In this document: positions 1-19,737 of the stretch, one piece after another
Layout of the letters: each line of letters starts with the position of its first letter
Position numbering within the stretch: the first letter of the stretch is position 1
Assembly (NCBI GenBank): GCA_016188785.1
Contig: JACPHD010000020.1
Span: forward strand, 3,306 to 67,305
Origin: Parcubacteria group bacterium
Lineage (GTDB): Bacteria; Patescibacteriota; Patescibacteriia; Patescibacteriales; GWC2-42-12
Reading direction: 5' to 3'
DNA length: 64,000 bases
Position numbers and translations under genes: made by a program
The notes under the pieces: generated by a model
What the model was told of the DNA's origin: nothing
Databases searched by the model: none
Seen by the model: the letters and a program-made list of their open reading frames with translations, nothing else

Positions 1-7
1 TTCGTCT

Positions 8-2893
8 ATGGAGGAGATCGGCAAACAGGCCGAGCAGATGAAGCAAGAGGCTGAACAGGCAATGAGGGAAGCAAAAGAAACTGGTGCTGATGAGATTACC
101 GAGGAGCAATTGCAAAAGCTGAAAGAGCAACTTGAACAATTGGAAGAGGTTGCCAAGCAAATTGCCGAGAGCGGCGCGTTGGAAAAAGAGCTCGCAAAAC
201 CGGAAGAGGAGCCGATGACTTACAATATCAAGGAATACGGCATTAACGAAGCCGAGCTCACTTCCGAGCAATTGGAGAATCTGCAGAAAACCAGGGTCTT
301 TGCACAAAATACTTCAAAAGTGTATCGCACGGCGATGCATCTTTTGATGATCGGCTACCAGCAAAAAAATCCTAAGTTTACGGACAAGATGATGCAGAAA
401 ATGATAGAGCGCAGTTATGATCTTCCTGATTTTTCTTTATATGGATCACGAGCGGCAGATGAATTCTTGTCAAAACAACAAGAACTAGGCATAGACGGTT
501 TTAGCGACAATTTTTTAGTGAATTTCCAACTGCCCCGACCTCTCGCAAAATTTTGGTACAAGGGCGGCAATGGGAGCAAGTCCGTACCGGTAAAAGAGGG
601 CGAGATCGAATGGGGGCATTTTTATAGAATGTGCATGCCCGTAATTTATAACGGAGTTGATCGGGCGCAGATGTCCGGTCTTTATCTGAATCGTTTGAAT
701 CAGTTCGGTCAGCATGATCCCAAAAAGTATTATTATCTTTGGGAGACCATAGACCTGGCGCAGGAAAAACAAAAACAGGAAAATGAAGCTCTTAAGGAAA
801 TGCAGGAACAGCTGAAAGAGATGAAAGAAAAATTGGATGAGATGAACGAACAATCCGGGAAGTCCGATGAAAAAGATGACCAAGCCGGACAAAGCGGAGA
901 AAAAAGCGAAAGCTCTAAACAAAAATCCAACGAGCAGAAACAATCCGTCCAGGAAAAGCAATCATCCGAACAAGGCGAGAATAAACCGTCGGCGCAAGAA
1001 CTTAAAAAGCAAATCGATGAATTGAAAAAGCAGGTTGACCAAATGATCAAAGACGCAGAAGAGCGGGGCGACCAAGCCGCGGCAGATGAGCTGAAAGAGA
1101 TGAAAGAACAGCTCGAACAAATGTCAAAAAAACTTGAAAAGGATGAACAGGGGGAAAAGGGCGAATCCGGCGAGCAGGGAGAGGGTCAAGAATCTGAAGG
1201 GCAAGAGGGTGAATCCGGTGAAAGTGAGGGTCAAGGCGAATCATCTCAAGGAAAAGGATCTGGCCAATCTGGCTCCGGGCAAGGACAAGGTCAGGGTGAA
1301 GGTGCAGGAGAAGGCGGTCAGGGTGGATCACAAGGCGGCCAGCCGGGTAAAGGTATGGGGCAAGGCGGTGGTCAACCTCAACCGGGCGGTCAAAAAGGAA
1401 TGGGTCAGGGGCCCGGCCAACCGGGAGGAGCAGAAGGGTCTGGTGAAATGGGTGGCGGCATGACTTCCCCGGGAGAGATGAAAGAATTGATGGATCAGAT
1501 GCAAGAGATGCTTAATCAGGCCAAAGAGCAAGGTGGTGTTCCCGGAGGTCAAGAAGCCATACAACAAATGCTTGACGAGCTTGCTTCGATGCAAGAAAGT
1601 TTGCAATCAGGAGCAAGTCCTCAAGAGTTAGCCAAGCAGATGTCGGAAGCTATGCAGAAAATGTCCGAAATGATGGGCGGCGAGGAAGGAGGCGAACCGG
1701 GACAGGATGGCCAAGAACAAGGGCAACAGAGTGAATCCGGTGGAGCATCAGGCCAAGAATCTTCTGGCGAAGGGTCTGAACAATCTGAAGGCGAATCCGG
1801 AGAGCAATCACATGACCAATTCCAAAAGGGCGGGAAAACGCATGAAGGAGCTGTTGAGGGAATGTTTAGTAAACCCAATGAAGAGTTATTAAAGCAACTT
1901 CGACAAGCTGAGGAAATGGTCGGCAGTAAATTTACCACTCAAGATGAAAGTGGCAATCTTGTGGCGAGAGATATGAGTCAGTCAATGGGTGAAAGTTTAA
2001 AAGCTGAAACCTCTCAACTTTCTCAAGCTCATGTGCGACAGATGGAAACGTTGGAAGAGCTCAAAAGACAACAGCAGTCAAAAATGGAAGCCATGTATCG
2101 GGAAATGTCGGGGCTTGATGGTGAAACTCTTCGCGTTTATGTGGATTATATGGAATCGTTGAAAAATTTTCGTGGAGAATTTAAAGAATTTTTAATAAAA
2201 AAGTTAAAATTAGATAAAAAATATTTAGAAGAGCGTAATAAAACAAGAGGAAGTCGTATGCAGAGAGATTTCCAGCGAAAAATAGTTGGTAAAAATCGTG
2301 ACGGTAAGCTAATAATACTTCCTACAATCATGAAAAGAAAAAGACCTCCAAGTCATCCAAATATTTGTTTTTCTGTAATAATTGATAATTCCGGTTCATG
2401 CTCTGGAGAAATAATTGAACAAGAAAAAAGAGTAGCGGTAAATTTGATTGAACTGGCAGATGAGCTTGATATAAATTTGGAAATAGTAACCTTCGGCGGT
2501 CCTGATCAATTTACATTTCTTAAGACATTCGAACAGAATATCGCCGGCGATGACTTGCAAAAAGTGGTATTGCTCAACGCAGATCAGGGAACGCCCGATG
2601 TTGTGACTCTTGATGCCGCCTGCACAAGTATGGAAAAATTCACTGATAAGTTTAGACGATCATACAATTTTGTGTATTTTATGACCGACGGACAATCCGG
2701 CTCAGGCTCAATTCAAGAAGTCATTAAAAAACACAAAAAGGATATGGTGATCACCGGTATCGGGATGGCTGGGGCGGCGCAAAACATAGCTCAGACATGG
2801 GGCAGAAATGCGGTCGAAGTGCCCGAAGTAAAAAAATTATCCGATGCTTTTATTAGAAAAGTTGAGGATCAGATAGATCAAACATTCGATTAA
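8..2893 (+). CDS. von Willebrand factor A (vWA/MIDAS) domain protein with a long acidic/Gly-Gln-rich low-complexity linker; possibly 5'-partial
   Basis: 961-aa ORF with no in-frame stop up to the window edge. C-terminal VIIDNSGSCSG matches the DxSxS MIDAS motif, and FMTDGQSGSG lies in a vWA-like fold pattern. Residues ~250-620 are E/K/Q/G/S low complexity. Confidence 0.7.
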   Translation: MEEIGKQAEQMKQEAEQAMREAKETGADEITEEQLQKLKEQLEQLEEVAKQIAESGALEKELAKPEEEPMTYNIKEYGINEAELTSEQLENLQKTRVFAQNTSKVYRTAMHLLMIGYQQKNPKFTDKMMQKMIERSYDLPDFSLYGSRAADEFLSKQQELGIDGFSDNFLVNFQLPRPLAKFWYKGGNGSKSVPVKEGEIEWGHFYRMCMPVIYNGVDRAQMSGLYLNRLNQFGQHDPKKYYYLWETIDLAQEKQKQENEALKEMQEQLKEMKEKLDEMNEQSGKSDEKDDQAGQSGEKSESSKQKSNEQKQSVQEKQSSEQGENKPSAQELKKQIDELKKQVDQMIKDAEERGDQAAADELKEMKEQLEQMSKKLEKDEQGEKGESGEQGEGQESEGQEGESGESEGQGESSQGKGSGQSGSGQGQGQGEGAGEGGQGGSQGGQPGKGMGQGGGQPQPGGQKGMGQGPGQPGGAEGSGEMGGGMTSPGEMKELMDQMQEMLNQAKEQGGVPGGQEAIQQMLDELASMQESLQSGASPQELAKQMSEAMQKMSEMMGGEEGGEPGQDGQEQGQQSESGGASGQESSGEGSEQSEGESGEQSHDQFQKGGKTHEGAVEGMFSKPNEELLKQLRQAEEMVGSKFTTQDESGNLVARDMSQSMGESLKAETSQLSQAHVRQMETLEELKRQQQSKMEAMYREMSGLDGETLRVYVDYMESLKNFRGEFKEFLIKKLKLDKKYLEERNKTRGSRMQRDFQRKIVGKNRDGKLIILPTIMKRKRPPSHPNICFSVIIDNSGSCSGEIIEQEKRVAVNLIELADELDINLEIVTFGGPDQFTFLKTFEQNIAGDDLQKVVLLNADQGTPDVVTLDAACTSMEKFTDKFRRSYNFVYFMTDGQSGSGSIQEVIKKHKKDMVITGIGMAGAAQNIAQTWGRNAVEVPEVKKLSDAFIRKVEDQIDQTFD

Positions 2894-2937
2894 TTTAAAA
2901 ACTATGCCTGAAAAAAATTGCAAAATAAAATTACCTA

Positions 2938-3534
2938 ATGTCAGCCGCTAATTTTTCCATAATTTTACCCTGGGTTTTAGTTCATGGCTATTTAATGATT
3001 TTTGTCGCCATTATAATTGGCGGTCCGATTTTTATTTCGGCCGCGGCCTTTGCCGCGGCCTTGGGTTATTTTAATGTTTATTTTATTTTCAGCTTGGCCT
3101 TTTTCGGTGAAATCACGGTTGATATTACGCTTTATTTAATCGGCTATAGCGGTCGCGCGGGCCTGGTAAAAAAATTCGGCCATTATTTCGGTTTAACTGC
3201 CGCCAGAATTTTAAGCTTGGAGAAACTTTTATCCCGGCATGTCTGGAAAGCGCTGTTTATAATTAAATATTCGCCGATTATACCGGTACCAGGTTTTATT
3301 ATCGCCGGCGCGGCCAGGCTTGAATTTAAGAAATTTTTTTATATTTTATTCATTTTAAGTCTGCCTAAGGCGGTTTTTTTTACTATGATAGGCTATTGGT
3401 TCGGCCGGGCTTATGAAACGTTCGCCGGTTATTTTTATTATGGCCAATATTTGATTGTCGTAGTAATAATTTTATTTATAGCCGCGCATTATTTATTTAG
3501 CCACTTTTCTAAGAAAATATCCGAAAAAAAATAA
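2938..3534 (+). CDS. DedA/VTT-family integral membrane protein
   Basis: 198 aa and multi-TM. The GEITVDITLYLIGY...KYSPIIPVPG pattern is typical of the DedA (SNARE-associated) family. Confidence 0.65.
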   Translation: MSAANFSIILPWVLVHGYLMIFVAIIIGGPIFISAAAFAAALGYFNVYFIFSLAFFGEITVDITLYLIGYSGRAGLVKKFGHYFGLTAARILSLEKLLSRHVWKALFIIKYSPIIPVPGFIIAGAARLEFKKFFYILFILSLPKAVFFTMIGYWFGRAYETFAGYFYYGQYLIVVVIILFIAAHYLFSHFSKKISEKK

Positions 3535-3541
3535 AATTAAT

Positions 3542-4729
3542 ATGAAGATCGCTATTTTTTCCGATAATTTTTACCCGGAGTTAAGCGGCATTTCTGATTC
3601 AATAATTTTGCTGGCTCGCGAGCTGGCCAAATTAAATCATGAAATAAATTTTTACGCGCCTAAATATAGCGCCAAGAATTATCAGGTCTTGAATTTAGCC
3701 GATCAAGAATTGGACCTTGGAGAAAATATTAAAATTAAACGGCTATTTTCTCTGCCAGCGTCGTTTATTAGTGATTATTCCAGGATAGTTATTCCCGTGC
3801 CGTGGCGCCGGCTGTTTAAAAATTTTAAGCCAGATATTATTCATACTCAGCTTTTTTTCGGCGCTGGGCTAAAAGCGCTGGCCGCGGCAAGATTAAATAA
3901 ATTTCCGCTGGTCGGCACTAATCATACGGCTATTTCAGAATTTATAAAACTCGCGCCGCTTAAGCTTAATTTTTTAAAAAATTTCAGTTTGAATTACGCG
4001 GTTTGGTATTATAACCGCTGTAATTTCGTAACCGCGCCGTCGCAATCAGTCTTTAAAGAAATGTTAGCTTACGGTTTTAATAAACCGCATCAAGTTATTT
4101 CCAATCCGCTTGATCTTAATACCTTTCGTCCGTCAGACCATAAATCAGAGTATAAGAAAAAATTTAATTTGTCCGATAAGGTCGTCGTCTATGCCGGCCG
4201 CTTATCTTTGGAAAAAAATATTGACGCGCTGATTAAAGCCGCGGCTTTAACTAAAAAAAGAATCAGTAATATTAATTTAGCTATCGCCGGATCAGGCCAG
4301 TTTGAAAATGAGCTTAAGCGACTAGTCAAAGAATTAGGTATAGAAAATGAAGTTAAGTTTTTTGGCAGATTAAGTAAAGACGATTTGGCAAAATTATATC
4401 AAGCCGCGGAAATTTTTTCTATCGCTTCCACCTCGGAAACCCAGAGTTTGACTTTAATGCAGGCCATGGCTTGCGGCCTGCCGGCCGTAGCGGTTGACTC
4501 GCGGGCTTTACCGGAATATGTTAATGGGCAAAACGGTTTTATAGTAAAAGCCGGCGATGAAAACGTTCTGGCGGAAAAATTTATTTTTCTTTTAGCCAAT
4601 AGTAAACTGCGCCAAGAATTAGGTCGCGGCGCGGCTGCTTCTGTCCAGCAATTTTCCGCTGAAAATATCGCCAAACAGTGGGAAAAGCTGTATGGCAGGG
4701 TAATAGAGGATTATAAAAATAAGGCTTGA
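3542..4729 (+). CDS. glycosyltransferase family 4 (GT-B, GT4)
   Basis: 395 aa. N-terminal MKIAIFSDNFYPELSGI and C-terminal AGRLSLEKN...STSETQSLTLMQAMACGLPAVA (E-x7-E region) are typical of GT4. Confidence 0.85.
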   Translation: MKIAIFSDNFYPELSGISDSIILLARELAKLNHEINFYAPKYSAKNYQVLNLADQELDLGENIKIKRLFSLPASFISDYSRIVIPVPWRRLFKNFKPDIIHTQLFFGAGLKALAAARLNKFPLVGTNHTAISEFIKLAPLKLNFLKNFSLNYAVWYYNRCNFVTAPSQSVFKEMLAYGFNKPHQVISNPLDLNTFRPSDHKSEYKKKFNLSDKVVVYAGRLSLEKNIDALIKAAALTKKRISNINLAIAGSGQFENELKRLVKELGIENEVKFFGRLSKDDLAKLYQAAEIFSIASTSETQSLTLMQAMACGLPAVAVDSRALPEYVNGQNGFIVKAGDENVLAEKFIFLLANSKLRQELGRGAAASVQQFSAENIAKQWEKLYGRVIEDYKNKA

Positions 4730-4753
4730 AAATTATTTAATTTATAGTATAAT
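4726..4753 (+). promoter_or_regulatory. sigma70-like promoter candidate (TTGAAA-16 nt-TATAAT)
   Basis: TTGAAA at 4726-4731, a 16-nt spacer, and TATAAT at 4748-4753. It lies directly upstream of the 4767-4921 palindromic motif and the GT2 gene. Confidence 0.4.
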
Positions 4754-4786
4754 ATATAGAGCTGAACTCATTTAGGGTTTTATCCT

Positions 4787-4888
4787 GTAAGCCGCAGAAA
4801 ATACTTATTTTCTCACTGCGGAACCCCCCGCACTAAATGCGGAGTCAAACAGTCATCGTTTCAAAAATAAGCATTTTCTGCGGCTTAC
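4787..4888. ncRNA. 102-nt conserved-core/covarying-stem motif, copy A (candidate structured RNA or structured DNA site)
   Basis: A 23-bp outer stem (4787-4809 / 4866-4888, one A-C mismatch) encloses the core ATTTTCTCACTGCGGAAC...hairpin...TCAAACAGTCATCGTTTCAAAA. A second copy at 60050-60151 has the same core but a completely different, still complementary stem. An extra outer pairing joins 4767-4781 with 4907-4921. Confidence 0.45.
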
Positions 4889-4946
4889 TTTAGACGAAAA
4901 ATAGAGAAAACTCTAAATAAGTTAATTAAATAAAATTCTTATTCTT

Positions 4947-5717
4947 ATGAAGTTAAGCGTAGTTGTTCCGGCTCATAACGAAGAGGCGCTGATTGGCGGC
5001 TGTTTAAATTCAATTTTAGCGGAAATGAACGGCCAAAATTATGACCTGGAAATTATAGCGGTTAATAATGCTTCAACCGATAAAACTAAAGAAATTATCA
5101 CTTCCTTCCCCCAAGTCAAATTAGTTAATGAACCTAATAAGGGTTTGGTAAAAGCGCGCCGCGCCGGTTTTTTAGCGTCAACGGGCGAACTGGTGGCTAA
5201 TATTGACGCGGACACCAGAATGATTCCAGGCTGGCTGGATAAAGTGTTTGAAGAATTTTCTAAAAATAAAAAACTGGCGGCTTTAAGCGGACCGTTTATT
5301 TATTATGATTTATCAAAGAATGCCAGGCTGGCCGTACGTACATTTTATTACGCCGGTTTTTTTATTTATCTTGTTAACCGCTACATCCTGGGCGTTGGTT
5401 CAATGCTTCAGGGCGGTAATTTTGTGGTTAAACGTTCGGCCATAGAAGCCATCGGCGGCTTTAATTCTAACTTTGACTTTTGGGGCGAAGATACTGATTT
5501 GGCGCGCCGGCTAGTTAAAGTCGGCGGCGTGAAATTTACTTTTGACCTGCCGATTTACGCTTCAGGCCGAAGACTGGAGCGCGAGGGCCTGGCTAAAACC
5601 GGCTGGACTTATATGCTTAATTATTTTTCCACGATTTTTTTTAAAAAACCCTATGACACGGTCAAAAAAGATTTTAAAAATAAATACGCGAAAACTTTGG
5701 CGAGAATTAAAGAGTAA
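4947..5717 (+). CDS. glycosyltransferase family 2
   Basis: 256 aa. LSVVVPAHNEE...AVNNASTDKT...DADT is the classic GT2 (GT-A, DxD) N-terminal signature. Confidence 0.85.
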   Translation: MKLSVVVPAHNEEALIGGCLNSILAEMNGQNYDLEIIAVNNASTDKTKEIITSFPQVKLVNEPNKGLVKARRAGFLASTGELVANIDADTRMIPGWLDKVFEEFSKNKKLAALSGPFIYYDLSKNARLAVRTFYYAGFFIYLVNRYILGVGSMLQGGNFVVKRSAIEAIGGFNSNFDFWGEDTDLARRLVKVGGVKFTFDLPIYASGRRLEREGLAKTGWTYMLNYFSTIFFKKPYDTVKKDFKNKYAKTLARIKE

Positions 5718-5727
5718 ATAATTATTT

Positions 5728-5903
5728 GTCATTGCGAGGACCTTAATTTTAAATTGTCATTGCGGGCTCCCGCCCGCCTCGCAAGCGAAGCGTTGCGGGC
5801 GCGGTGACCCGCAATCCAGGACGATGGGAATATTGACCAACATGGTTTTTCTGGATTCCTGCTTTCGCAGGAATGACGAAAGTAATTTACTCTTCGCAAT
5901 GAC
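5728..5903. repeat. cluster of GTCATTGCG/GGAATGAC TIR-type palindromic repeats with a nested GC-rich CGCAAGC palindrome
   Basis: GTCATTGCGAG (5728), GTCATTGCGGG...CCCGCCCGCCTCGCAAGCGAAGCGTTGCGGGC...CCCGCAATCCAGG, CTGGATTCCTGCTTTCGCAGGAATGAC, and CTTCGCAATGAC (ends 5903). The same words recur at 12 or more other loci. Confidence 0.85.
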
Positions 5904-5915
5904 AAGATTGAAAAT

Positions 5916-6932
5916 ATGAAAATATTAGTCACCGGCGGCGCCGGGTTTATTGGCTCTAACTTTATACGTTATTGGCTAAAAAAATATCCAGCTGACAGCC
6001 TAGTCAATCTGGACGCTTTAACCTACGCCGGCAATTTAGAAAATTTGTCGGATATTGAAAATAATAAAAATTACAAATTTATTAAAGGCAGTATTTGTGA
6101 TGATAATTTAGCCTACGATTTGGTTCAAGACTTGGATTTAATAGTAAATTTCGCGGCCGAGTCGCACGTTGACCGCTCAATTATGGACTGCCGCGATTTT
6201 ATCACAACCAATGTTGAGGGTACGCGAACTTTATTGGAGGCGGCTAAATCCGCCAGCCGGCGGAACGGCAAAATAAGATTTCATCATATTTCCACGGACG
6301 AAGTTTTCGGTTCGCTCGGCCCGAGCGATAAGCCGTTTAATGAAACTACTCCTTATGATCCAAGAAGCCCTTATAGCGCTTCTAAAGCCGCCGCCGATCA
6401 TCTGGTACGAGCCTATTGGCACACGTATGAGCTGCCTATTACCATTTCCAATTGTTCCAACAATTACGGCCCTTATCAATTTCCGGAAAAAATTATTCCA
6501 TTATTCATTACTAATCTCTTGGCCAATAAAAAAATCCCGGTCTACGGCCAGGGAAAAAATATACGCGATTGGATTTATGTTGATGATCATAACGCCGGCG
6601 TTGACGCTATTATTAAAAGAGGCAGACTCGGGCAGTCCTATTGTTTGGGCGGAAACAGCGAGCTGACTAATTTTAAGCTTACCAAAAAGATATTAAGTTT
6701 TATGGGCAAGGGCGAGGATATGATTGAATATGTAACGGACCGGCCGGGGCATGACCTGCGCTACGGCCTGGATTTTACCAAAGCTAAAAATGAACTGGGC
6801 TGGCGGCCGGCCGTGAACTTTAACGACGGCTTAAAGAAAACCATCGCTTGGTATAAAAATAATCAGGCTTGGTGGCAAAATATTAAAAGCGGGGAGTATT
6901 TAGAATATTATAAAAAGCAGTATGGCCAATAA
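5916..6932 (+). CDS. rfbB: dTDP-glucose 4,6-dehydratase
   Basis: 338 aa. MKILVTGGAGFIGSNF Rossmann motif, the YSASKAA catalytic motif, and DRPGHDLRY near the C-terminus. Confidence 0.95.
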   Translation: MKILVTGGAGFIGSNFIRYWLKKYPADSLVNLDALTYAGNLENLSDIENNKNYKFIKGSICDDNLAYDLVQDLDLIVNFAAESHVDRSIMDCRDFITTNVEGTRTLLEAAKSASRRNGKIRFHHISTDEVFGSLGPSDKPFNETTPYDPRSPYSASKAAADHLVRAYWHTYELPITISNCSNNYGPYQFPEKIIPLFITNLLANKKIPVYGQGKNIRDWIYVDDHNAGVDAIIKRGRLGQSYCLGGNSELTNFKLTKKILSFMGKGEDMIEYVTDRPGHDLRYGLDFTKAKNELGWRPAVNFNDGLKKTIAWYKNNQAWWQNIKSGEYLEYYKKQYGQ

Positions 6933-7785
6933 GAAAATTTTAATTTTAGGCGCTAAAGGAAATTTAGGTCGTCAGTTGCAAAAAGTTTTCGCGGCTGAAG
7001 ATGTTATGGCTTGGGATCGGGGAGAGATTGATATTACGGACCGGGAATTGATCTTAAAAAAAATTGCTGATTTAAAGCCGGAGCTGGTGATCAATGCCGC
7101 GGCTTATAACGCGGTTGATAAGTGCGAGGCTAGCGACGAGGAATATGAGCTGGCGAAAAAAATCAATATTGACGGACCTAAATTTTTAGCCGAAGCTTGC
7201 CTGCGGATTGGCGCGATTTTAGTCCATTATTCCACGGATTATGTTTTTGACGGCGTCCGCCGGAGCGGCTATATTGAGAACGACGAGCCAAAACCAATTA
7301 ACCGTTACGGCAAAACTAAATTCCACGGCGAAAAAAGGATTCTGGAATTAAGCGGCGCCGGGCTTAAGTGGTATTTAATCAGGACTTCAAAATTATTCGG
7401 GCCTAAAGGAGAAAGCCTGATGGCTAAACCGAGTTTCTTTGACATCATGCTGGAGAAAGCACGGATTAAGCCGAGTTTAGAGGCGGTTGACGATGAATTA
7501 AGCTGTTTTACTTATACGGTTGATCTGGCCGCGGCCACTAAAAAATTGGTTGACAACGGCGGCGGCTACGGCATCTATCATCTAGTAAATAGCGGCGCTG
7601 GCACTTGGTATGAAGCGGCCTTGGAATTATTTAAACTGGTTGGAATTAAGATTGAAGTGAAACCGGTAAGCAGTGAAAAGTTAGCTCGTCCGGCCAAAAG
7701 GCCGAAGTATTCAGTACTATTAAATACTAAACTGCCGTTGCTCCGGGATTATCGGCGGGCCTTGAGGGAATATTTGGGGAAATGA
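6922..7785 (+). CDS. rfbD: dTDP-4-dehydrorhamnose reductase
   Basis: 287 aa. ILILGAKGNLG, INAAAYNAVDKCE, STDYVFDG and YGKTK motifs. Overlaps the rfbB stop codon. Confidence 0.9.
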   Translation: MANKKILILGAKGNLGRQLQKVFAAEDVMAWDRGEIDITDRELILKKIADLKPELVINAAAYNAVDKCEASDEEYELAKKINIDGPKFLAEACLRIGAILVHYSTDYVFDGVRRSGYIENDEPKPINRYGKTKFHGEKRILELSGAGLKWYLIRTSKLFGPKGESLMAKPSFFDIMLEKARIKPSLEAVDDELSCFTYTVDLAAATKKLVDNGGGYGIYHLVNSGAGTWYEAALELFKLVGIKIEVKPVSSEKLARPAKRPKYSVLLNTKLPLLRDYRRALREYLGK

Positions 7786-7848
7786 ATAACGAATTATGAA
7801 TAATGAATAATGGGAAAATACAAAACCATAATTCATAATTCATAATTT
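7786..7848. repeat. AT-rich heptamer-tiled palindrome (GAATTAT/ATGAATA words) immediately after the rfbD stop
   Basis: CGAATTATGAATAATGAATAATGG ... CCATAATTCATAATTCATAATTT form imperfect inverted arms. Confidence 0.7.
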
Positions 7849-7854
7849 ATACGT

Positions 7855-8649
7855 ATGCGCGGAATAATTTTAGCCGGCGGAACGGCCACTCGCTTGTTTC
7901 CGCTTACGGCCACCACCTCAAAACAGCTTTTGCCGATTTATGACCGGCAGATGATTTTTTATCCGTTAAATGTTTTAGTAAAGGCCGGTATAAAAGATAT
8001 TTTGATTATTATCGCGCCGGAGCACTCCGGTCATTTTTTGAACTTGCTCGGGTCAATTTTTGATAAAAATGACATTCGTCTGGAATTTAAGGTGCAAAAA
8101 ATTCCGCGCGGTCTGGCCGACGCTTTTTTAATCGGCGAAAATTTTATTGATGGGGATAATGTTACTATGATTTTGGGCGATAATATTTTTGAAGATGATT
8201 TCTCCGAGGCGATAAAAAATTTTAAAAGTGGCGGCCAAGTTTTTGCGGTAAAAGTGCCTGATCCGGAACGTTCCGGCGTGGTGCAGTTTGATGATAAAAT
8301 GAAAGCGGTTAAAATCGTGGAAAAACCGAAAGAATGGCTTAGCGATTACATTATTCCCGGTTTATATATCTACGACAGCCGGGTGGTTGATGTAGCCAGA
8401 CAAGTTAAACCTAGCGCCCGAGGCGAGATTGAAATTACTGATTTGCATAATTGGTATTTAGAGAGGGGAGAGTTGACGGTTGGCTTAATAAAAGGCAAAT
8501 GGCTGGACGCCGGTACTTTTGACTCTCTACTTGAAGCCGGCCAGTACGTCAAGGAAAAGAAATTATACGAAAAATTTGACCCAATAATCAACCAGGCGAT
8601 TTTAGAATTTAATCAGGAGCTAAAAAATTTGGCTAAGAAAAAATTGTAA
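7855..8649 (+). CDS. rfbA: glucose-1-phosphate thymidylyltransferase (short form)
   Basis: 264 aa. MRGIILAGGTATRLFPLTATTSKQLLPIYDRQMIFYPL is the canonical nucleotidyltransferase N-terminus. Confidence 0.9.
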   Translation: MRGIILAGGTATRLFPLTATTSKQLLPIYDRQMIFYPLNVLVKAGIKDILIIIAPEHSGHFLNLLGSIFDKNDIRLEFKVQKIPRGLADAFLIGENFIDGDNVTMILGDNIFEDDFSEAIKNFKSGGQVFAVKVPDPERSGVVQFDDKMKAVKIVEKPKEWLSDYIIPGLYIYDSRVVDVARQVKPSARGEIEITDLHNWYLERGELTVGLIKGKWLDAGTFDSLLEAGQYVKEKKLYEKFDPIINQAILEFNQELKNLAKKKL

Positions 8650-8657
8650 ATTGAACT

Positions 8658-9623
8658 ATGGCCGAAAAATATAAAATTTATATCGGTTTTATAACTTACG
8701 GCGATTTAACGGCAAAATATTTGCCGTATTTTTTACCCAGCCTGAAACAGCAAAGTTTTAAAGATTTTAAGATTTTAGTCATTGATAATAGCGAGGTTGA
8801 GAATAATAATAATGCCAGCTATATAAAAAATAATTTTTCGGAAATTGATTTAACCTGGGCCGGCGATAATTTAGGCTTTGCCAAGGCTTTTAATATTATG
8901 ATCAGGCGGGCGATTCGCCAGGGCGCTGAATATTTTTTAGCGCTTAATCCGGATATGATTTTAGAGCCGGACGTAGTGGTTAAACTGGTAAATGAATTGG
9001 ACAACAACCAGGCGCTGGGATCGGCAACGGCCAAAATATTAAAGTGGAATTTTGCCGATCAGAAAAAAACTAATATTATAGATAGTTGTGGAATTAAATT
9101 ATTGCCAGGCTTAAGGTTCGTTGATTGCGGCCAGGGAGAGAAAGATGAAGCAGATTGCAATGATGAAATAATCGGTCCTTCCGGCGCTTGCGCGATTTAT
9201 CGCTTAAGCGCTTTGGAAAAAATTAAGCGCGTCGGGCAATATTTTGACGAACTGATGTTTATGTATAAAGAGGATTGTGATTTGGCTTACCGGCTTTATT
9301 TGGCCGGTTTTAAGTCAAACTGCGTTGTTAGCGCCGTGGTTTATCATGACCGCTCCAGCGCCGGCCGGGGCGAAAATAATTTGGCCGTGGCCTTAAACCG
9401 CAAGCATAAAAGCCGGCGGGTCAAGCAGTTGTCATTTTTAAACCAGCAGATTATTTTTATAAAATACTGGCGCTTGCAAAATTGGCGTGAAAAAATAAAT
9501 ATAATTTGGTTTGAAATTAAAATGCTGGTTTTCGCTTTATTTTTTGAACCGTATTTATTTAAAGAGTTAATAAATTTAAGTAAAATCAGCCATAAAATAA
9601 TAAGATACAAAAATGGGAATTAA
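8658..9623 (+). CDS. glycosyltransferase family 2 (rhamnosyltransferase-like)
   Basis: 321 aa. ILVIDNSE...GDNLGFAKAFN...LNPDM pattern of GT2. Confidence 0.8.
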   Translation: MAEKYKIYIGFITYGDLTAKYLPYFLPSLKQQSFKDFKILVIDNSEVENNNNASYIKNNFSEIDLTWAGDNLGFAKAFNIMIRRAIRQGAEYFLALNPDMILEPDVVVKLVNELDNNQALGSATAKILKWNFADQKKTNIIDSCGIKLLPGLRFVDCGQGEKDEADCNDEIIGPSGACAIYRLSALEKIKRVGQYFDELMFMYKEDCDLAYRLYLAGFKSNCVVSAVVYHDRSSAGRGENNLAVALNRKHKSRRVKQLSFLNQQIIFIKYWRLQNWREKINIIWFEIKMLVFALFFEPYLFKELINLSKISHKIIRYKNGN

Positions 9624-10125
9624 ATTAAATTTAGGTTGCGGCAATAAAAAGATCCCCGGCTTTATCGGGGTTGACCGAGTTAAAACAGCGGCCGCAGACT
9701 TAATTCATGATTTGAATATCAGGCCTTACCCGTTTGCCGATAATAGCGTTGATGAAATTATCGCCGATAATGTTCTAGAGCACTTAAATGACATAGTTGC
9801 GGTTATGGCCGAGTGGCATCGGATTTGCCGTCCGGGCGCCATCATTAAAATAAGCTTGCCATATTATAAATCAAGCGGCGCTTTTAGCGACCCGACGCAT
9901 CAGCATTTTTTTACGGAAAACAGCTTTCAGTATTTCAGTCCGGAGCATGAATATCATTTTTATGCCCAGACCAAGTTTAAAACTTTGAAAATTAAATTAT
10001 TAGCCAAAGATTTTAATGATTTTCGCCATAAATTAAGAAACCTTTTGCCGTTTAAGAAATTTTTTAATTTTTGGCTATTTAATATTTACGACGAAATTTA
10101 TTTTGAACTGGCCTGCGTAAAATAA
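9613..10125 (+). CDS. class I SAM-dependent methyltransferase (type 11-like)
   Basis: 170 aa. LNLGCG motif I and ADNVLEHL motif. Confidence 0.7.
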   Translation: MGIKLNLGCGNKKIPGFIGVDRVKTAAADLIHDLNIRPYPFADNSVDEIIADNVLEHLNDIVAVMAEWHRICRPGAIIKISLPYYKSSGAFSDPTHQHFFTENSFQYFSPEHEYHFYAQTKFKTLKIKLLAKDFNDFRHKLRNLLPFKKFFNFWLFNIYDEIYFELACVK

Positions 10126-10126
10126 T

Positions 10127-10975
10127 ATGGATTTATCAATCATCATCGTTTCCTGGAACGTTAAAGAAAAGCTGAAAGATAATTTAAGAGCGCTCTATGA
10201 AAGCCAAAACGTTGACTTTGAAATTTTTGTGGTGGACAATAATTCAAGCGACCAGACCGTGGCAATGGTAAAAAATGATTATCCAAAAGTGAAACTAATC
10301 GCTAATTCGGAAAATTTAGGTTTTGCTAAAGCTAATAACCAAGCGATTAAACTGGCCGCCGGCCGCTACATTCTTCTTTTAAATCCGGATATGCGCGTGT
10401 TTGACGATACTTTATCAAGAGTAGTTTCCTGGTCTGATAAGCATGAACGCGCCTGGGTGATCGGCTGCCGCTTAATAGATGAAAGCGCCAGAATCGTTAA
10501 GCAGGTGCGCTGTTTTCCCGGGCTGGCGGATCAACTAGCCATTATTTTAAAAGTTCCTCATATTTTCCCGGCCGTTTTAAATAAATACTTAATGAACGAT
10601 TTTGACTATTCTAAATCAGCTTCGGTTGATTCTATCAGGGGCGGCTTTTTTATGATTAGGCGGGAGGCGATTGCCAAAATCGGCTGGCTGGATGAAAGAT
10701 ATTTTTTATGGTTTGAGGAAGTTGATTATTGCCGGCGGGTTAAAGAGGCCGGCGGCGAAATTTGGTACGTGCCTGGCGCCGAATGCATTGATTTAATCGG
10801 GCAGAGTTTTAAGCAGGTTAATTTAGCCGTCAAGCAAAGATATTTCCGCGATTCCATGCTAAAATATTTTAAAAAGTGGCAGCCGGGTTGGCAGTACTGG
10901 CTTTTACGTTTAGCCTGGCCGCTGGGCTTAATGATTGTCCGGCTATGGAGCAGGTTAAGGGCTATTTTAAAATAG
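10127..10975 (+). CDS. glycosyltransferase family 2
   Basis: 282 aa. LSIIIVSWN...VVDNNSSDQT...NLGFAKANN...LLNPDM. Confidence 0.85.
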   Translation: MDLSIIIVSWNVKEKLKDNLRALYESQNVDFEIFVVDNNSSDQTVAMVKNDYPKVKLIANSENLGFAKANNQAIKLAAGRYILLLNPDMRVFDDTLSRVVSWSDKHERAWVIGCRLIDESARIVKQVRCFPGLADQLAIILKVPHIFPAVLNKYLMNDFDYSKSASVDSIRGGFFMIRREAIAKIGWLDERYFLWFEEVDYCRRVKEAGGEIWYVPGAECIDLIGQSFKQVNLAVKQRYFRDSMLKYFKKWQPGWQYWLLRLAWPLGLMIVRLWSRLRAILK

Positions 10976-11051
10976 TCTTAAAAGAATTATTCGTTTTTAT
11001 ATCTCAAAAAAAATAAATTCAAAGCGGCCAATGTAAGGTCAGGATGTTAAT

Positions 11052-12488
11052 ATGGATTTTAAAAAAATAAAAAAAATATATTTAATCGGCGTTAAAGGCG
11101 TGGGCATGACCATGCTGGGGCAATATCTGGCCGCCCAAGGCGCGCAGGTAAGCGGTTCGGATGGGCCGGAAAAATACATGACTGACGCGGCGCTGAAAAA
11201 TTCCGGCATAAAAATTATTGAGCATTTTAATGCGGCTAATATACCTAAGGACGTTGATTTAGTTATTTATTCAACCGCTTATAATGCCGAAACTAACGTT
11301 GAAGTGGCCGTGGCTTTGTCTGGAAAAATAAAAACGCTTACTTACGCCCAGGCTCTGGGCGAAGTGTTTAACCAGAAATACGGTCTGGCCGTGGTTGGTT
11401 CGCATGGCAAAACCACGACCACGGCCTGGTTAGGCTATGTTATGAAAATGGCCGAGCTTGAACCCAGTGTTATGGTAGGCGCCTCTGTACCGCAATTTAA
11501 CGGCTGCGCTTTAACGGGTGAGTCTGATTATTTATTGATTGAAGCGGATGAATATCAAAACAAACTTAAATATTACGAGCCCAAAGCCGTAATTTTAACT
11601 AATATTGATTATGATCATCCTGATTTTTTTTCCACCGCGGAAGATTATAAAAATGTTTTTCTAGAATTTATAAAAAAAATTCCGGTTAAAGGATTTTTAG
11701 TCGCGAATTTTGACGATCCGCTAATTAGAAAAATCGCCAGAGTGAATTGCCGCGGCCAAGTTATAACTTATGCTCTTAACGAAGCGGCCGATTATGTGGC
11801 TTATGATATTAAAAGCGACGGGCAGAGGCAGTATTTTAAAGTAAAATTAGGGGCAGGAGATGAAGATAATCCCCCCTACCCCCCTTTATCAAGGGGGGAT
11901 GAGCTGGGTGATTTTTCTATTCGGCTCTGTGGTCGGCATAATATTTATAATGCTTTGGCCGTGATTGCCGCTAGCGTTGAGCTGGGCATTGAGCTTTTTA
12001 AAATCAGAAAATATTTAGAAGAATTTTCCGGCGCGGCCAGAAGAATGCAGGTTTTAGGCGAATTCAAGGGCGCGCTGGTAATTGACGATTATGCCCATCA
12101 CCCCACAGAAATAAAAGCTACTCTGGAAGCGCTGCGACAGAAATATGGCGGCCGGAAATTAGTCGTGGCTTTTCATCCGCATACTTTCAGCCGCACTAAA
12201 GCTTTGTTTAATAATTTTGCCCAAAGTTTCAGCCAGGCCGATGAACTGATTATTATTGACATTTACGGTTCGGCGCGAGAAAAACAAGGCGGGGTGAGTA
12301 GTTTGGAATTGACGAGAGAAATAAGAATCAGGAATCAGGAATCAGGAATCAGGCAAACTGTGGATCATATTCCAACGCTGGCTGAATGTGAAGAATATTT
12401 ACGGCGAAAAGCCAAGAGAGATGATATTATTGTGTTAATGGGCGCCGGGGATATATTTAGGGTAGGAAATAATTTATTGAGCAAATAA
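11052..12488 (+). CDS. murC: UDP-N-acetylmuramate--L-alanine ligase, carrying two in-frame repeat insertions
   Basis: 478 aa. GVKGVGMTMLG, GSHGKTTTT P-loop, DYDHPD, GRHNIYNALA and DDYAHHPTEI motifs. Insertions at 11871-11899 and 12326-12353. Confidence 0.9.
   Translation: MDFKKIKKIYLIGVKGVGMTMLGQYLAAQGAQVSGSDGPEKYMTDAALKNSGIKIIEHFNAANIPKDVDLVIYSTAYNAETNVEVAVALSGKIKTLTYAQALGEVFNQKYGLAVVGSHGKTTTTAWLGYVMKMAELEPSVMVGASVPQFNGCALTGESDYLLIEADEYQNKLKYYEPKAVILTNIDYDHPDFFSTAEDYKNVFLEFIKKIPVKGFLVANFDDPLIRKIARVNCRGQVITYALNEAADYVAYDIKSDGQRQYFKVKLGAGDEDNPPYPPLSRGDELGDFSIRLCGRHNIYNALAVIAASVELGIELFKIRKYLEEFSGAARRMQVLGEFKGALVIDDYAHHPTEIKATLEALRQKYGGRKLVVAFHPHTFSRTKALFNNFAQSFSQADELIIIDIYGSAREKQGGVSSLELTREIRIRNQESGIRQTVDHIPTLAECEEYLRRKAKRDDIIVLMGAGDIFRVGNNLLSK
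11871..11899. repeat. C/G-run hairpin element (CCCCCCTACCCCCCTTTATCAAGGGGGG) in-frame inside murC
   Basis: Read directly. It translates as PPYPPLSRG within an otherwise MurC-like region. Confidence 0.7.
12326..12353. repeat. tandem heptamer AATCAGG x4 inside murC
   Basis: Four perfect AATCAGG copies, translated as RIRNQESGIR. Confidence 0.9.
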
Positions 12489-12493
12489 ATAGT

Positions 12494-12592
12494 TCTAATA
12501 ATACGAATTACGAATTTGTTACGAATTTACAAATACTGTCATAAATGTTTTGTTTAATTTCGTAAATTCGTAAAGGATTTGTAATTCGTATA
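12494..12592. repeat. AT-rich heptamer-tiled palindrome (ACGAATT/TTCGTAA words) after murC
   Basis: ATACGAATTACGAATTTGTTACGAATTTACAAAT ... ATTTCGTAAATTCGTAAAGGATTTGTAATTCGTAT form inverted arms. Confidence 0.75.
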
Positions 12593-12595
12593 TTT

Positions 12596-14386
12596 ATGAA
12601 AGAAAAATTAAACTTAAAATTAGATAAAAGGCCGGTTAAGATGCGGCAATTTTGGCGAAGATTGTGGCGGCTGATCGCGCCAACTCATAAGCAAATTATT
12701 TATTTGTTTATTTTAATCGCGGCTTATGAAATTTTTAAATTTGTCGGGCCGTATTTGCTTAAAAAAATTATTGATTTGATCACTGATTTTAAGCCCGAGC
12801 ATATAAAGAATATATTATTTTTTATATTTTTAATTTTAATTTTTGATTTAGTAGTGGCTATAATTGATTATTTCGCGGATAAAGAAAGTTTTAAGATATT
12901 AGCTGAAGTGGAAAGATACTTATCGGTTAACGCTCAGGAAAAAATGGTCAGGCTGGGCCTGGCTTATCATGAAAGAGAAAATACCGGCAATAAAATATTT
13001 AAAATCAGGCGCGGCATTGATAAAATAATTGAACTGTTGATGAATTCATTTTTTGAAGTCGGTCCGACCGTAATTCAGGTTATCCTTACCGCCATCATCA
13101 TGTTTTTTGTGGACTGGCGTTTTGGCTTGATTTTTTCTTTATTCGCGCCGCTGTTCGCCTGGCTGACCGCCAAACTGAATTTAGAAATTAGCCCTTTGCG
13201 CAAATTCCGGCATGACAGGTATGAAGAAGCGGCCGGTAAAATGGCCCAGACTATTATCAATATCAATACGGTAAAATCGTTCGTCCATGAAGAGCGGGAA
13301 ATAAAAGAATACGGCGCCATCGAGCAGAAAACTAAGCGAGTGGCTTTGTTTGAACATTTTAAAATGCTGAAATTTAATTTTTCCCGGATTATGGTAATAA
13401 CTTTAGGCCGGATTTCAATTATACTGTTCGGCGTTTATTTGGCCTGGCAGGGCAGTATCACTGTCGGCAGTCTGGTTTTTATTATTACCATTTCGGAAAA
13501 AGCTTTAATTTCTTTGTTTAGAATTTCCCGGCTGTATGACCGGATTATGGATTCAAGCGAAGCTATTGATCTGCTGTATAAATTAAATCGCGAAGCGCCG
13601 GACATAGTTAATCCCGAACAGGGCCTTAAAGTTAAAGGGCTTAAAGGCGCGGTTGAATTTAAGCAAGTTGATTTTATCTATCGCCATAGCAAAGTAAAAG
13701 CGCTTGACCGGGTAAGTTTTAAGATCAATGCCGGCGGTTTTACGGCTTTGGTCGGTCCGTCGGGCGGCGGCAAGACCACGGTGGCGCGCCTGATTTACCG
13801 CCACTACGATCCGGCTTCGGGCGCGGTCCTGCTTGATGGCAAAAATTTAACCGAATATGATTTGTACGGCTTTAGAAAATTCATGGCTATTGTGCCGCAA
13901 GAGGTGGAAATTTTTGATTCCAGCGCTAAAGACAATATCGCTTACGCCAGGCCGGATGCGAGTTTTAGGGAAATTACCGCCGCGGCTAAAATCGCCAATG
14001 CCGCGGAATTCATTGAAAAATTAGCTCAAGGCTATAATACTTTAGTGGGCGAGCGGGGCATAAAACTTTCCGGCGGACAAAGACAGCGCCTCGGCATCGC
14101 CCGGGCCGTACTGGCTAATCCGAAAATTTTAATTTTTGATGAAGCCACCTCTAATCTGGACTCTTACAGCGAGAAATTAATTCAAGAAGCTTTAAGTAAA
14201 ATCAGCCGCGGCCGAACGGTTATCGTGATCGCCCATCGGTTGAGTACAATTCAGCAAGCCGATAAAATAATCGTTTTGGAAAACGGCCAGGTGGCGGAGC
14301 AAGGCAGCCATCATGAACTTGCTAAAATAAACGGCGGTTTATATAAAAAATTGTTAAATCTCCAGCGATTGGGGGATATCAAGTAG
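12596..14386 (+). CDS. ABC transporter, fused permease/ATP-binding protein (MsbA-like exporter)
   Basis: 596 aa. Six-TM N-terminal domain, Walker A GPSGGGKTT, LSGGQRQR signature, and Walker B ILIFDEATS. Confidence 0.9.
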   Translation: MKEKLNLKLDKRPVKMRQFWRRLWRLIAPTHKQIIYLFILIAAYEIFKFVGPYLLKKIIDLITDFKPEHIKNILFFIFLILIFDLVVAIIDYFADKESFKILAEVERYLSVNAQEKMVRLGLAYHERENTGNKIFKIRRGIDKIIELLMNSFFEVGPTVIQVILTAIIMFFVDWRFGLIFSLFAPLFAWLTAKLNLEISPLRKFRHDRYEEAAGKMAQTIININTVKSFVHEEREIKEYGAIEQKTKRVALFEHFKMLKFNFSRIMVITLGRISIILFGVYLAWQGSITVGSLVFIITISEKALISLFRISRLYDRIMDSSEAIDLLYKLNREAPDIVNPEQGLKVKGLKGAVEFKQVDFIYRHSKVKALDRVSFKINAGGFTALVGPSGGGKTTVARLIYRHYDPASGAVLLDGKNLTEYDLYGFRKFMAIVPQEVEIFDSSAKDNIAYARPDASFREITAAAKIANAAEFIEKLAQGYNTLVGERGIKLSGGQRQRLGIARAVLANPKILIFDEATSNLDSYSEKLIQEALSKISRGRTVIVIAHRLSTIQQADKIIVLENGQVAEQGSHHELAKINGGLYKKLLNLQRLGDIK

Positions 14387-14923
14387 ATGATAGTAAAAAT
14401 AATCACTAATATTATATTGATAATCGTTTTGGCCGTGGTGCAGATTTCCTTAATTAGCGCCTTACCCGGCCTAGCCGGCAATTTGAATTTAGTTTTAGTG
14501 GCGCTAATTTTTATTTTAGGTTTTTCCAGTCTTGATTTCGCGGCCTGGTGGACGATTGGCCTTGGTTTTTTATTGGAAATTTTTTCTTTTTTGCCTTTTG
14601 GCGCTTATCTTATTAGCTTAAGCCTTACGCTTATGATCGCTAATTTTTTACTGAATTATTTTTTTACCAATCGTTCGCTTTATTCATTTTTAGCCCTTAC
14701 CGGTTTAGCCACGGTTATTTATGAATTAATAATTAATTTTTTTGTTTTAATTTTTATGGAGATAAATTTACCGGCGGCGCTAACGGCCGGTAATTTTTGG
14801 TTTTCCAAATTAGAGCAAATCGGCTTGAATCTTTTACTGGCTGTTATTATCTATTATATAATTCATTTTTTAGGCAGAAATTTAAGGCCGGTATTTTTAT
14901 TTCACGGGGTAAAAAAATATTAA
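14387..14923 (+). CDS. polytopic membrane protein, possibly MreD-like
   Basis: 178 aa and highly hydrophobic. It lies directly upstream of PBP2 and is translationally coupled to it. The assignment rests on position only. Confidence 0.35.
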   Translation: MIVKIITNIILIIVLAVVQISLISALPGLAGNLNLVLVALIFILGFSSLDFAAWWTIGLGFLLEIFSFLPFGAYLISLSLTLMIANFLLNYFFTNRSLYSFLALTGLATVIYELIINFFVLIFMEINLPAALTAGNFWFSKLEQIGLNLLLAVIIYYIIHFLGRNLRPVFLFHGVKKY

Positions 14924-14924
14924 C

Positions 14925-16874: not shown

Positions 16875-16887
16875 GTATATACAGATA

Positions 16888-16929
16888 CAGACCCGCGTGG
16901 TCTGCAAGCCTGCAGACCCCGCGGGTCTG
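16888..16929. terminator. GC-rich nested palindrome after mrdA (possible terminator/structured element)
   Basis: CAGACCCGCG-T-GGTCTGCA-AGCC-TGCAGACC-C-CGCGGGTCTG. No clean U-tract follows on the plus strand. Confidence 0.4.
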
Positions 16930-16937
16930 GTAAAAAA

Positions 16938-16964
16938 TTAGCACTCTTGACAAGAGAGTGCTAA
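16938..16964. promoter_or_regulatory. CIRCE operator (HrcA binding site)
   Basis: TTAGCACTC-N9-GAGTGCTAA is a perfect match to the CIRCE consensus. Confidence 0.95.
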
Positions 16965-16976
16965 TTGCTGTAAAAT
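16947..16976 (+). promoter_or_regulatory. sigma70-like promoter overlapping CIRCE (TTGACA-18 nt-TAAAAT)
   Basis: TTGACA at 16947-16952 lies in the CIRCE spacer. TAAAAT is at 16971-16976. Confidence 0.6.
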
Positions 16977-16989
16977 GGTTTTATATGGA

Positions 16990-17050
16990 CCCCGTTAGAT
17001 AAAATATAAGTTTAACGGCGGTCATAAATATATGAAGATATCTAACGGGG
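16990..17050. repeat. CCCCGTTAGA...TCTAACGGGG hairpin element, copy 1 (overlaps the hrcA start)
   Basis: Arms CCCCGTTAGAT / ATCTAACGGGG with a 39-nt interior. The annotated hrcA ATG (17032) lies inside it. Confidence 0.8.
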
Positions 17051-17745: not shown

Positions 17746-17808
17746 GATTTTAACGAGTAATACGATAAGTATTTTAATTATAAACTTGCCTGCTGACTTC
17801 TAACGGGG
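17730..17808. repeat. CCCCGTTAGA...TCTAACGGGG hairpin element, copy 2 (overlaps the hrcA stop)
   Basis: Arms CCCCGTTAGAAG / CTTCTAACGGGG. The preceding ATGGACCCCGTTAGA is identical to the sequence at 16985-16999. Confidence 0.8.
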
Positions 17809-17823
17809 CGGGAAAATAATATT

Positions 17824-18876: not shown

Positions 18877-18952
18877 AAAGATTAAATAATAATTAAATTT
18901 ATTTCCGCGGTTAATTCTGGCAAACGGAATTAACGCGGTGGAGGAAAAAAAT

Positions 18953-19381: not shown

Positions 19382-19406
19382 AAGTTAGAAGTAATAAAAT
19401 TCATCT

Positions 19407-19690: not shown

Positions 19691-19737
19691 TTAGTTAATA
19701 AGAAAAAAAATACAACATCAAAATAATAATTTATAGT

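Follow-up and report, generated by a model that had tools for sequence, protein, structure and literature searches.

Nested palindromes with a transcription-polar core, a probable family of miniature inverted-repeat elements of Patescibacteria

Two nested palindromes in front of glycosyltransferase genes

The DNA analysed here (the window) is a stretch of 64,000 nucleotides from a bacterium of the Parcubacteria group (Patescibacteriota; assembly GCA_016188785.1, contig JACPHD010000020.1, forward-strand positions 3,306 to 67,305). A motif of 102 nt occurs in it twice, each time directly in front of a glycosyltransferase gene: copy A (4787-4888) before a gene of family GT2 and copy B (60050-60151) before a gene of family GT4. 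A preliminary description, made from the letters of the window alone, had noted both copies and their near-identical core; the bounds and the core blocks common to the two were confirmed. The 102 nt are, however, the inner part of a larger nested palindrome, the pairing running on beyond them in both copies. We consider it probable that these palindromes form a family of non-autonomous elements of Patescibacteria that resemble miniature inverted-repeat transposable elements (MITEs), with a core that is polar with respect to transcription and that, as we infer, probably functions at the RNA level, as a module of the sense transcript.

The core of about 52 nt is near-identical in copies A and B. 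Its blocks ATTTTCTCNNTGCGGAAC and TCAAACAGTCNTCNNTTCAAAA each occur twice in the 64-kb window; for the 3′ block, TCAAACAGTCNTCNNTTCAAAA, the 2 exact matches compare with 0.03 expected by chance. The core is flanked by arms of 25 nt, which in each copy stand 52 nt apart and are 96% complementary, with a single mismatch that reads A·C on the plus strand. Between copies A and B the arms have no sequence likeness, as had been reported. Also real is the reciprocal swap of a dinucleotide pair inside the core, AC/GT in copy A (4815-4816 with 4858-4859) versus GT/AC in copy B (60078-60079 with 60121-60122). Compared with shuffled sequence, both copies fold with z-scores of about −9 on the plus and minus strands alike. 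When the 64-kb window was searched with a covariance model, copies A and B were the only matches.

The features of the two copies, and of one empty insertion site, are the following:

4728-4938, plus strand: copy A, whole nested palindrome, filling the gap between the stop codon of the upstream GT4 gene (4727-4729) and the ATG of the GT2 gene (4947)
4728-4742 and 4924-4938, plus strand: copy A, outermost inverted repeat
4726-4753, plus strand: copy A, promoter-like TTGAAA-16-TATAAT, with its −10 box in the repeated unit and its −35 box overlapping the upstream stop codon
4765-4781, plus strand: copy A, 5′ arm of the outer stem P0, AACTCATTTAGGGTTTT, read from the sequence and kept in other A-type copies
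4907-4923, plus strand: copy A, 3′ arm of the outer stem P0, AAAACTCTAAATAAGTT, read from the sequence and from other A-type copies
4787-4811, plus strand: copy A, 5′ arm of the inner stem P1, 25 nt, 96% complementary to 4864-4888
4812-4863, plus strand: copy A, conserved asymmetric core, which holds P2, P3 and P4
4815-4816 with 4858-4859, plus strand: copy A, core helix P2 (2 bp), enclosing P3 (GGA/UCC) and, at 4828-4842, the variable apical hairpin P4
4864-4888, plus strand: copy A, 3′ arm of the inner stem P1, complementary to 4787-4811
60017-60172, plus strand: copy B, whole MITE-like element, beginning 3 nt past the upstream stop codon (60011-60013) and ending 5 nt before the ATG of the GT4 gene (60178)
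60017-60029, plus strand: copy B, left terminal inverted repeat, degenerate TAGCACTTACGCG (family consensus CAGGACTTACGCG), from flank alignment
60030-60049, plus strand: copy B, long asymmetric spacer CTTAAAAAATATTTGTGAAA, from flank alignment
60050-60074, plus strand: copy B, 5′ arm of the inner stem P1, 25 nt, 96% complementary to 60127-60151
60075-60126, plus strand: copy B, conserved core, with P2 (60078-60079 with 60121-60122) and the apical hairpin P4 (60090-60107)
60127-60151, plus strand: copy B, 3′ arm of the inner stem P1, complementary to 60050-60074
60160-60172, plus strand: copy B, right terminal inverted repeat, degenerate CATGTAAGTCTAT (family consensus CGCGTAAGTCCTG)
8650-8657, plus strand: 8-nt intergenic spacer TTGTAAATTGAACTATG, an insertion site empty in the window and filled in the relatives L039, L127 and L136 (fetched loci are given as L with a number)

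Over 60009/60018-60168/60192 copy B is 77-82% identical to elements at many unrelated loci, and its arm belongs to a widespread family of arms, CAGTTGGCT...; the arms are thus not arbitrary. The outer repeats of copy A are unlike the terminal repeats of the copy-B type, of which copy B itself has degenerate ones.

The element spreads by transposition

Transposition is shown to be the way in which the element spreads. The targets, frequently at stop codons, are AT-rich heptamers, 7 bp being duplicated, and the element fills tiny intergenic spacers. Direct duplications of 7 AT-rich base pairs (for example TAAATTA, TTAATTA, TAAGTTA and TTATTTA) were perfect at 11 of the 23 distinct loci that have both terminal repeats, most of the others having 5-6 bp, and the shifted control gave 0 of 23. 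The window is syntenic with several fetched contigs, that of a Falkowbacteria MAG (metagenome-assembled genome) included, at 66-85% nucleotide identity. In the three relatives named above, the spacer orthologous to window 8650-8657 holds an element of 155 bp with TAAATAA on both sides. Presence and absence differ at three further syntenic sites; at 40611 onward, 54606-54655 and 58340-58444 the window has no element, where the syntenic L062/L116, L005 and L055, respectively, carry one. With 8650-8657 these sites offer useful natural pairs of an empty and a filled state. The copy-A unit (4746-4928) has copies of 89-90% identity in at least three other contexts, beside genes for an SDR, a methyltransferase-like protein and IleRS. 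Deletion derivatives were also found, namely a core-less hairpin that retains the 5′ edge of the core, and remnants of 51-73 bp, one of them with a TTATTTA duplication of its own. The earlier view that the motif is not a transposon was not supported, given the terminal inverted repeats and target duplications of the copy-B subfamily and the orthologous site in its empty and filled states. The 7-bp duplications and the terminal inverted repeats together suggest a cut-and-paste mechanism of the DDE type.

Two other origins of the palindrome were considered. Insertion of the core into pre-existing palindromes was rejected, homologous arms being present in unrelated contexts. The core-less hairpin (L008 4146-4198) is not such a pre-insertion palindrome, because its retained core edge makes it a deletion derivative. 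Finally, the core halves might have been the ends of a longer autonomous element; the lone halves that were found are chance matches or variants with a large P4 only. Within 4 kb the locus L008 has three copies, an intact one, one whose 5′ arm is truncated and one without core; one copy (L008 2347-2447; also L021) stops 8 nt short of a tRNA gene.

A scan of genomes with the core pattern, one genome per species, matched 20 loci, 19 of which lie in Patescibacteria or unclassified MAGs (Magasanik-, Falkow-, Doudna- and Gracilibacteria, Parcubacteria and 3 contigs labelled Gammaproteobacteria). The remaining one, L006 from Sphingobacterium, was rejected as a chance match of the pattern, lying inside an open reading frame (ORF) and without arms. 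Metagenomes, with groundwater among the sources, gave at least 120 loci, many of them at contig ends. Taken together, the genome and metagenome loci are almost all from Patescibacteria, with several copies per MAG. Model searches gave 132 hits, which correspond to 87 distinct sequences; the homologues for which a covariance-model search had been proposed thus exist in large number, and they show compensatory changes. The later alignment contained 111 matches in 94 distinct rows, and grouping by the 160-nt flanks gave 93 distinct locus groups, a lower bound for the family. No match was obtained in the viral contigs searched for the element, and a phage origin was rejected. Typical copies of the element, which is otherwise confined to Patescibacteria, are also carried by MAG contigs labelled 'uncultured Gammaproteobacteria' (L003, L009 and L015), for which mis-binning or mislabelling is possible.

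From the outside inwards an element, as a nested DNA palindrome of about 155-210 bp, consists of inverted repeats that are terminal or outer (P0), an asymmetric spacer, the P1 stem of about 25 bp and an asymmetric core of about 52-58 nt with a variable apical hairpin. The units measure about 145-210 bp and have no conserved ORF, the length of the apical hairpin varying by non-multiples of 3. In the copy-B subfamily, which has the CAGTTGGCT... arms, homology across unrelated contexts reaches outward to the spacers (about 20 nt, CTTAAAAAATATTTnTnAGG, on one side and about 9 nt, CTAATCAAC, on the other) and to the terminal inverted repeats of 13 nt (CAGGACTTACGCG and CGCGTAAGTCCTG), which at many loci stand 145-169 bp apart. 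Inside P1 the family consensus consists of an A/U run, a pyrimidine loop, the 2-bp P2, a loop (UGC/UC), P3 (GGA-A-CU / AG-UCC), a loop (C / UCAAAC) and P4, the last ranging in size from a 7-nt mini-hairpin up to about 230 nt.

Two kinds of variant were seen. In a more GC-rich lineage (L098 3395-3690 and 6205-6375; also L032, L068 and L073) the core halves enclose apical domains of about 90-230 nt. Two of three copies of this large-P4 type have an outer stem that is short or imperfect, and all three lie 0-13 nt past a stop codon (of genes for a HAD hydrolase and a SOD); compared with Rfam, the large-P4 variants gave no match. In the other kind (L110 2188-2291 and L031 2018-2121) the core retains only TACGGA...CAGTCCTC and the A/U-run junctions, an unrelated segment of about 30 nt replacing the inner loop and P4. 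It may mark the minimal conserved set.

The genes next to the element are mutually unrelated: they encode GT4 and GT2 glycosyltransferases, Wzy, an epimerase, L33, L18/S5, PolA, RecJ, S1 and iPGM, and further an EPSP-synthase-family enzyme, FemAB, a permease, SOD, a HAD hydrolase, IleRS, an SDR and RNase HII. The element lies a median of 26.5 nt past the stop codon of the upstream gene, and it lies 8 times between convergent genes and once between divergent ones. In the preliminary description the motif had appeared as a cis-acting leader linked to glycosyltransferase genes, and one may still think of a riboswitch-like leader RNA for these or other genes of glycan synthesis: both copies in the window precede such genes, copy A stands behind a strong promoter-like site, and some other copies adjoin genes for GT4, GT2, Wzy or an epimerase. 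But glycosyltransferase genes, though recurrent, are a minority among neighbours that are mostly unrelated housekeeping genes. The survey of gene contexts, the position typically behind a stop codon, the convergent arrangements and the target duplications with their empty sites make such a leader extremely improbable, and the association with glycosyltransferases is coincidental. At L007 (Gracilibacteria) ORF calling with translation table 11 fails around the element and the gene context was not scored. Gracilibacteria are known to recode UGA, which fits this failure.

What stood of the leader claim is the site TTGAAA-16-TATAAT before copy A, which with 11 of 12 positions is the best promoter-like match in window 1-20000; what did not is the role as specifically a 5′ leader, given the usual place of the element about 26 nt past a stop codon. 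In all four copy-A-type contexts a −10 box lies 11-12 nt before P0, with a plausible −35 box in three of them, and a promoter-like site precedes the elements of the copy-A subfamily alone. Because of these boxes before P0, copy A is probably the 5′-terminal hairpin leader of the GT2 mRNA; copy B appears to be intercistronic. Type-B elements, core included, contain no promoter or intrinsic terminator above chance, and terminators are not enriched after the element. Canonical terminators composed of a hairpin and a T run are not enriched in window 1-20000 either (29 found versus 25.7 expected from shuffled sequence), and the source genome may not rely on classical intrinsic terminators.

Arms, polarity of the core and the strand puzzle

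In the alignment of 94 sequences 95.8% of the cells are paired, double changes occur in 26 of 33 pairs, and the covariation score is 0.53, where shuffles give 0.13 and slid registers no more than 0.10. The dinucleotide swap seen between copies A and B extends across the family in six types of P2 (GT/AC 38, GC/GC 21, AC/GT 5, CC/GG 2, AT/AT 1 and TC/GA 1). Wobble pairs are rare: in P1 1625 Watson-Crick pairs were counted, along with 12 G·T, 35 A·C and 28 other mismatches; in the 94-sequence alignment 23 P1 cells are G·U versus 85 non-standard ones, G·U making up about 1% of the cells, and of the pairs in P4, 263 are Watson-Crick and 1 is G·T. Between the syntenic loci L044 and L089 identity is 76-82% in the flanks and 95-100% in the core; in the arms it is only 68-70%, and yet these are still complementary. 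Two other syntenic pairs behave similarly.

Since the arms change at least as fast as the flanking genes and do so without wobble intermediates, we infer that their complementarity results from concerted evolution at the level of DNA, by copying from arm to arm, rather than from selection for an RNA stem. Conserved loops between unrelated but complementary stems had been taken as the signature of selection on structure. A conserved structured element was indeed found, as the proportion of paired cells and the covariation score show; that the stems are a signature of RNA selection was not supported, with so few G·U pairs and so fast a divergence of the arms.

The core behaves differently from the arms, being 95-100% identical in the syntenic pairs where they drift. 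Relative to the asymmetric flanks it is found in both orientations (form A 9, form B 16), and L030 and L034, which are different loci, have like flanks and arms with an inverted core. Where the neighbouring genes are in tandem, the core is co-directional with them in 45 of 48 contexts and opposed in 3 (p = 1e-10), the co-directional cases including flank form A (5) as well as form B (7). Because both forms are co-directional, the orientation of the flanks is neutral and that of the core is not. Transcription is more likely than replication to be the frame of reference, for the bias of 94% is probably above the co-orientation of genes with replication, and the genes of the window switch strand several times. 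The position of the elements argues for their transcription in the sense direction.

Inverted cores with like flanks and arms, as in L030 and L034, together with the two orientations, could be taken to indicate a phase-variable inverton, in which the 25-bp arms are recombination sites and the flipping core switches neighbouring genes. However, none of 25 loci that had been assembled 2-4 times independently shows both orientations, the arms differ between copies and so offer no common site to a recombinase, the invertible segment is only about 52 bp long, and no promoter is detectable in the core. We therefore think an inverton very unlikely. An assembly artefact is likewise unlikely, the orientation being reproducible across independent assemblies. 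The flips of the core are evolutionary events, neither a detectable phase switch nor an artefact of assembly.

Several observations weigh against a MITE-like element with an RNA module in its core. In the fetched loci, which are short, no autonomous insertion sequence or transposase with matching ends was found, nor any pair of terminal repeats more than 200 bp apart. Copies A and B both have no clean target duplication, and for this reason they are probably old insertions. The invariance of the core is partly due to ascertainment, about 25 of its positions having been fixed by the search patterns, although the positions free of this constraint and the hits obtained by model only are conserved too. 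The remaining observations concern the strand. The preliminary description had pointed out that the arm mismatch, A·C on the plus strand, is a G·U wobble on the minus strand; this puzzle holds family-wide, the compensatory intermediates being of the wobble type on the minus strand in 35 cases (A·C on plus) versus 12 (G·T). In addition, the minus-strand fold is the more stable one in 68 of 75 elements, the minimal P4 hairpins read GCGAAGC, GCGTAGC or GCGCAGC (GNA triloops) on this strand, and the internal loops are purine-rich on it. These cues sit awkwardly with a function of the sense RNA. A role of the minus strand as single-stranded DNA or antisense RNA is possible; so is a bias of repair; and so is selection favouring A·C mismatches, by which the mRNA hairpin is weakened close to the core, a possibility raised by the clustering of the mismatches 7-10 bp from the core.

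The minus-strand cues would be at home in a purely selfish MITE, whose core is a mobilisation site in double- or single-stranded DNA (bound by transposase or a host factor, or formed by the minus-strand hairpin) and whose orientation bias arises because the minus-sense version is harmful in mRNA or on an exposed non-template strand. Such an element would also account for helices that are nearly all Watson-Crick and for deletion derivatives centred on the hairpin. Transposases, on the other hand, normally bind the ends of an element and not its centre, the core is common to subfamilies with wholly different ends (type A versus type B), and it stays 95-100% identical at syntenic loci despite the drifting arms. 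We regard this explanation as rather unlikely.

Possible role of the core, and related repeats

The element with an RNA module in its core could work as follows. The arms would stay complementary through copying mediated by a hairpin or by template switching, and the same process would occasionally flip the core. In the sense transcript the core would form a knob of structured RNA on top of a long hairpin of the RNase III type, where a conserved factor, for example RNA polymerase, an RNase or some other RNA-binding protein, would recognise it. Such recognition would make an insertion within an operon non-polar, by read-through or by ordered processing, and selection would remove copies with the core in antisense. 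More specifically, the core may be a previously undescribed, transposon-borne RNA module that neutralises the polarity of insertions, be it by put-like antitermination, directed processing or self-cleavage; this we put forward tentatively, as a possible but doubtful extension. It would explain how palindromes of 150-200 bp can sit in 8-nt spacers of translationally coupled operons in the minimal genomes of the candidate phyla radiation (CPR), and why the core is kept along the direction of transcription even after a flip relative to its flanks.

About 29 invariant loop nucleotides framed by the variable helices P1, P2 and P4 might instead constitute a new, small self-cleaving ribozyme, or some other autonomous RNA, catalytic or structured. 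The invariant internal loops between covarying helices, a P4 that accepts inserts of 7 nt to about 230 nt and the polarity along transcription would suit such an RNA, and it would be a new class if real, in the absence of any Rfam match. Nevertheless we judge it improbable: no similarity to models of the hammerhead, hairpin, twister, pistol, hatchet or hepatitis delta virus (HDV) ribozymes was detected at E ≤ 10, G·U pairs are almost absent, and cleavage within operons would have to be tolerated. By eye the core was set beside those of the hammerhead (CUGAUGA...GAAA) and of the hairpin ribozyme (the substrate-like string ACAGUCC); the topology of helices and loops does not fit, and cmscan gave no hits. 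The comparison of the window, copy A and the larger variants with Rfam 15, at gathering as well as permissive thresholds, which had been recommended earlier, showed that the motif is absent from this database; only tRNAs passed the gathering thresholds, and the hits below them were to microRNA-like long hairpins and spurious.

As an analogy of function only, the polarity-neutralising module may be compared with put of phage HK022 and with EAR of Bacillus eps operons, which are short, structured and strand-specific RNA modules acting on the transcribing polymerase inside an operon whatever the downstream gene. The core has no sequence or Rfam similarity to them, and no enrichment of terminators follows the Patescibacteria element.

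Small mobile palindromic repeats are known from several bacterial phyla, and the RNA hairpins of Correia elements are substrates of RNase III, some copies supplying promoters. Correia/NEMIS of Neisseria, ERIC, RUP and YPAL-type repeats of enterobacteria and pneumococci are, like the family described here, intergenic hairpins with terminal inverted repeats that lie beside or between genes; they measure 100-170 bp and are co-transcribed, as the Patescibacteria element probably is. Their copies within a genome share the terminal repeats and have a variable or optional centre, whereas in the Patescibacteria element it is the centre that is invariant, the arms differing even between copies A and B of one genome.

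The mobile repeat bcr1 of the Bacillus cereus group, of about 155 bp, is transcribed with neighbouring genes and keeps its fold by compensatory changes; its copies are dispersed between genes, have short duplications at their ends and are not conserved in distribution between related strains (PMC3184786). The Patescibacteria element thus resembles bcr1 in size, in the dispersal of its copies between genes, in being bounded by short direct duplications, in its patchy distribution and in its compensatory base-pair changes. They differ in phylum and sequence, in the duplications (5 bp versus 7 AT-rich base pairs) and in shape, bcr1 being a cruciform of two stem-loops and the Patescibacteria element a single long nested palindrome; moreover the latter has a core that is far better conserved than the arms and tied to the transcriptional direction.

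REP and REPIN sequences, which depend on RAYT of the Y1/HUH type, resemble the family in being palindromes mostly at the 3′ ends of genes, in having hairpins that are thought to act in single-stranded form, and in showing effects of strand or orientation. REPINs, however, lack target duplications and have a conserved GTAG-type motif in the arms; the Patescibacteria element has 7-bp duplications and terminal inverted repeats. No RAYT gene was found, no search aimed at one having been made. Integron attC sites were rejected, having conserved outer R″/R′ boxes (RYYYAAC...GTTRRRY) and a variable centre, where here the centre is conserved and the arms are variable; the polarity of the arms is reversed (GTTGG 5′, CCAAC 3′), arrays are absent, and the element stands in housekeeping operons. 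For retron msr/msd as for attC, architecture and context do not fit, with no reverse transcriptase or integrase nearby.

The family is thus closest in kind to bcr1 and the Correia-type repeats, set apart by a conserved, transcription-polar centre and by arms that drift in concert. A search of the literature on MITEs or self-cleaving ribozymes in CPR/Patescibacteria returned nothing relevant, and as far as the literature was searched a MITE-like family of nested palindromes is new for Patescibacteria. The usual pattern of conservation is inverted in this family, whose transcription-polar centre does not vary between classes of Patescibacteria and whose arms drift in concert; this provides a natural system for separating concerted evolution of DNA from selection on RNA. 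It is at the same time a caution for the discovery of RNAs, for the palindrome of a transposon can yield a conserved loop with a covarying stem. If it is true that the core RNA makes insertions non-polar, the family would represent a new accommodation between transposon and host in very compact genomes and a new class of RNA. For annotation and assembly it matters that the element fills whole intergenic spacers, breaks metagenome assemblies and, as in copy A, can supply promoter boxes.

A second, unrelated family of palindromic repeats, bounded by GTCATTGCGAG...CTCGCAATGAC, occupies no fewer than six of the spacers between genes of the window:

5728-5903, 19407-19605, 20091-20290, 37709-37841, 41381-41505 and 44076-44224: repeats of the second palindromic family, in intergenic spacers

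Its end motif has 28 matches in the window, compared with 11.3 expected. At 37705-37853 the spacer occupied by the second family carries, in the relatives L023, L103 and L116, an element with the 102-nt motif.

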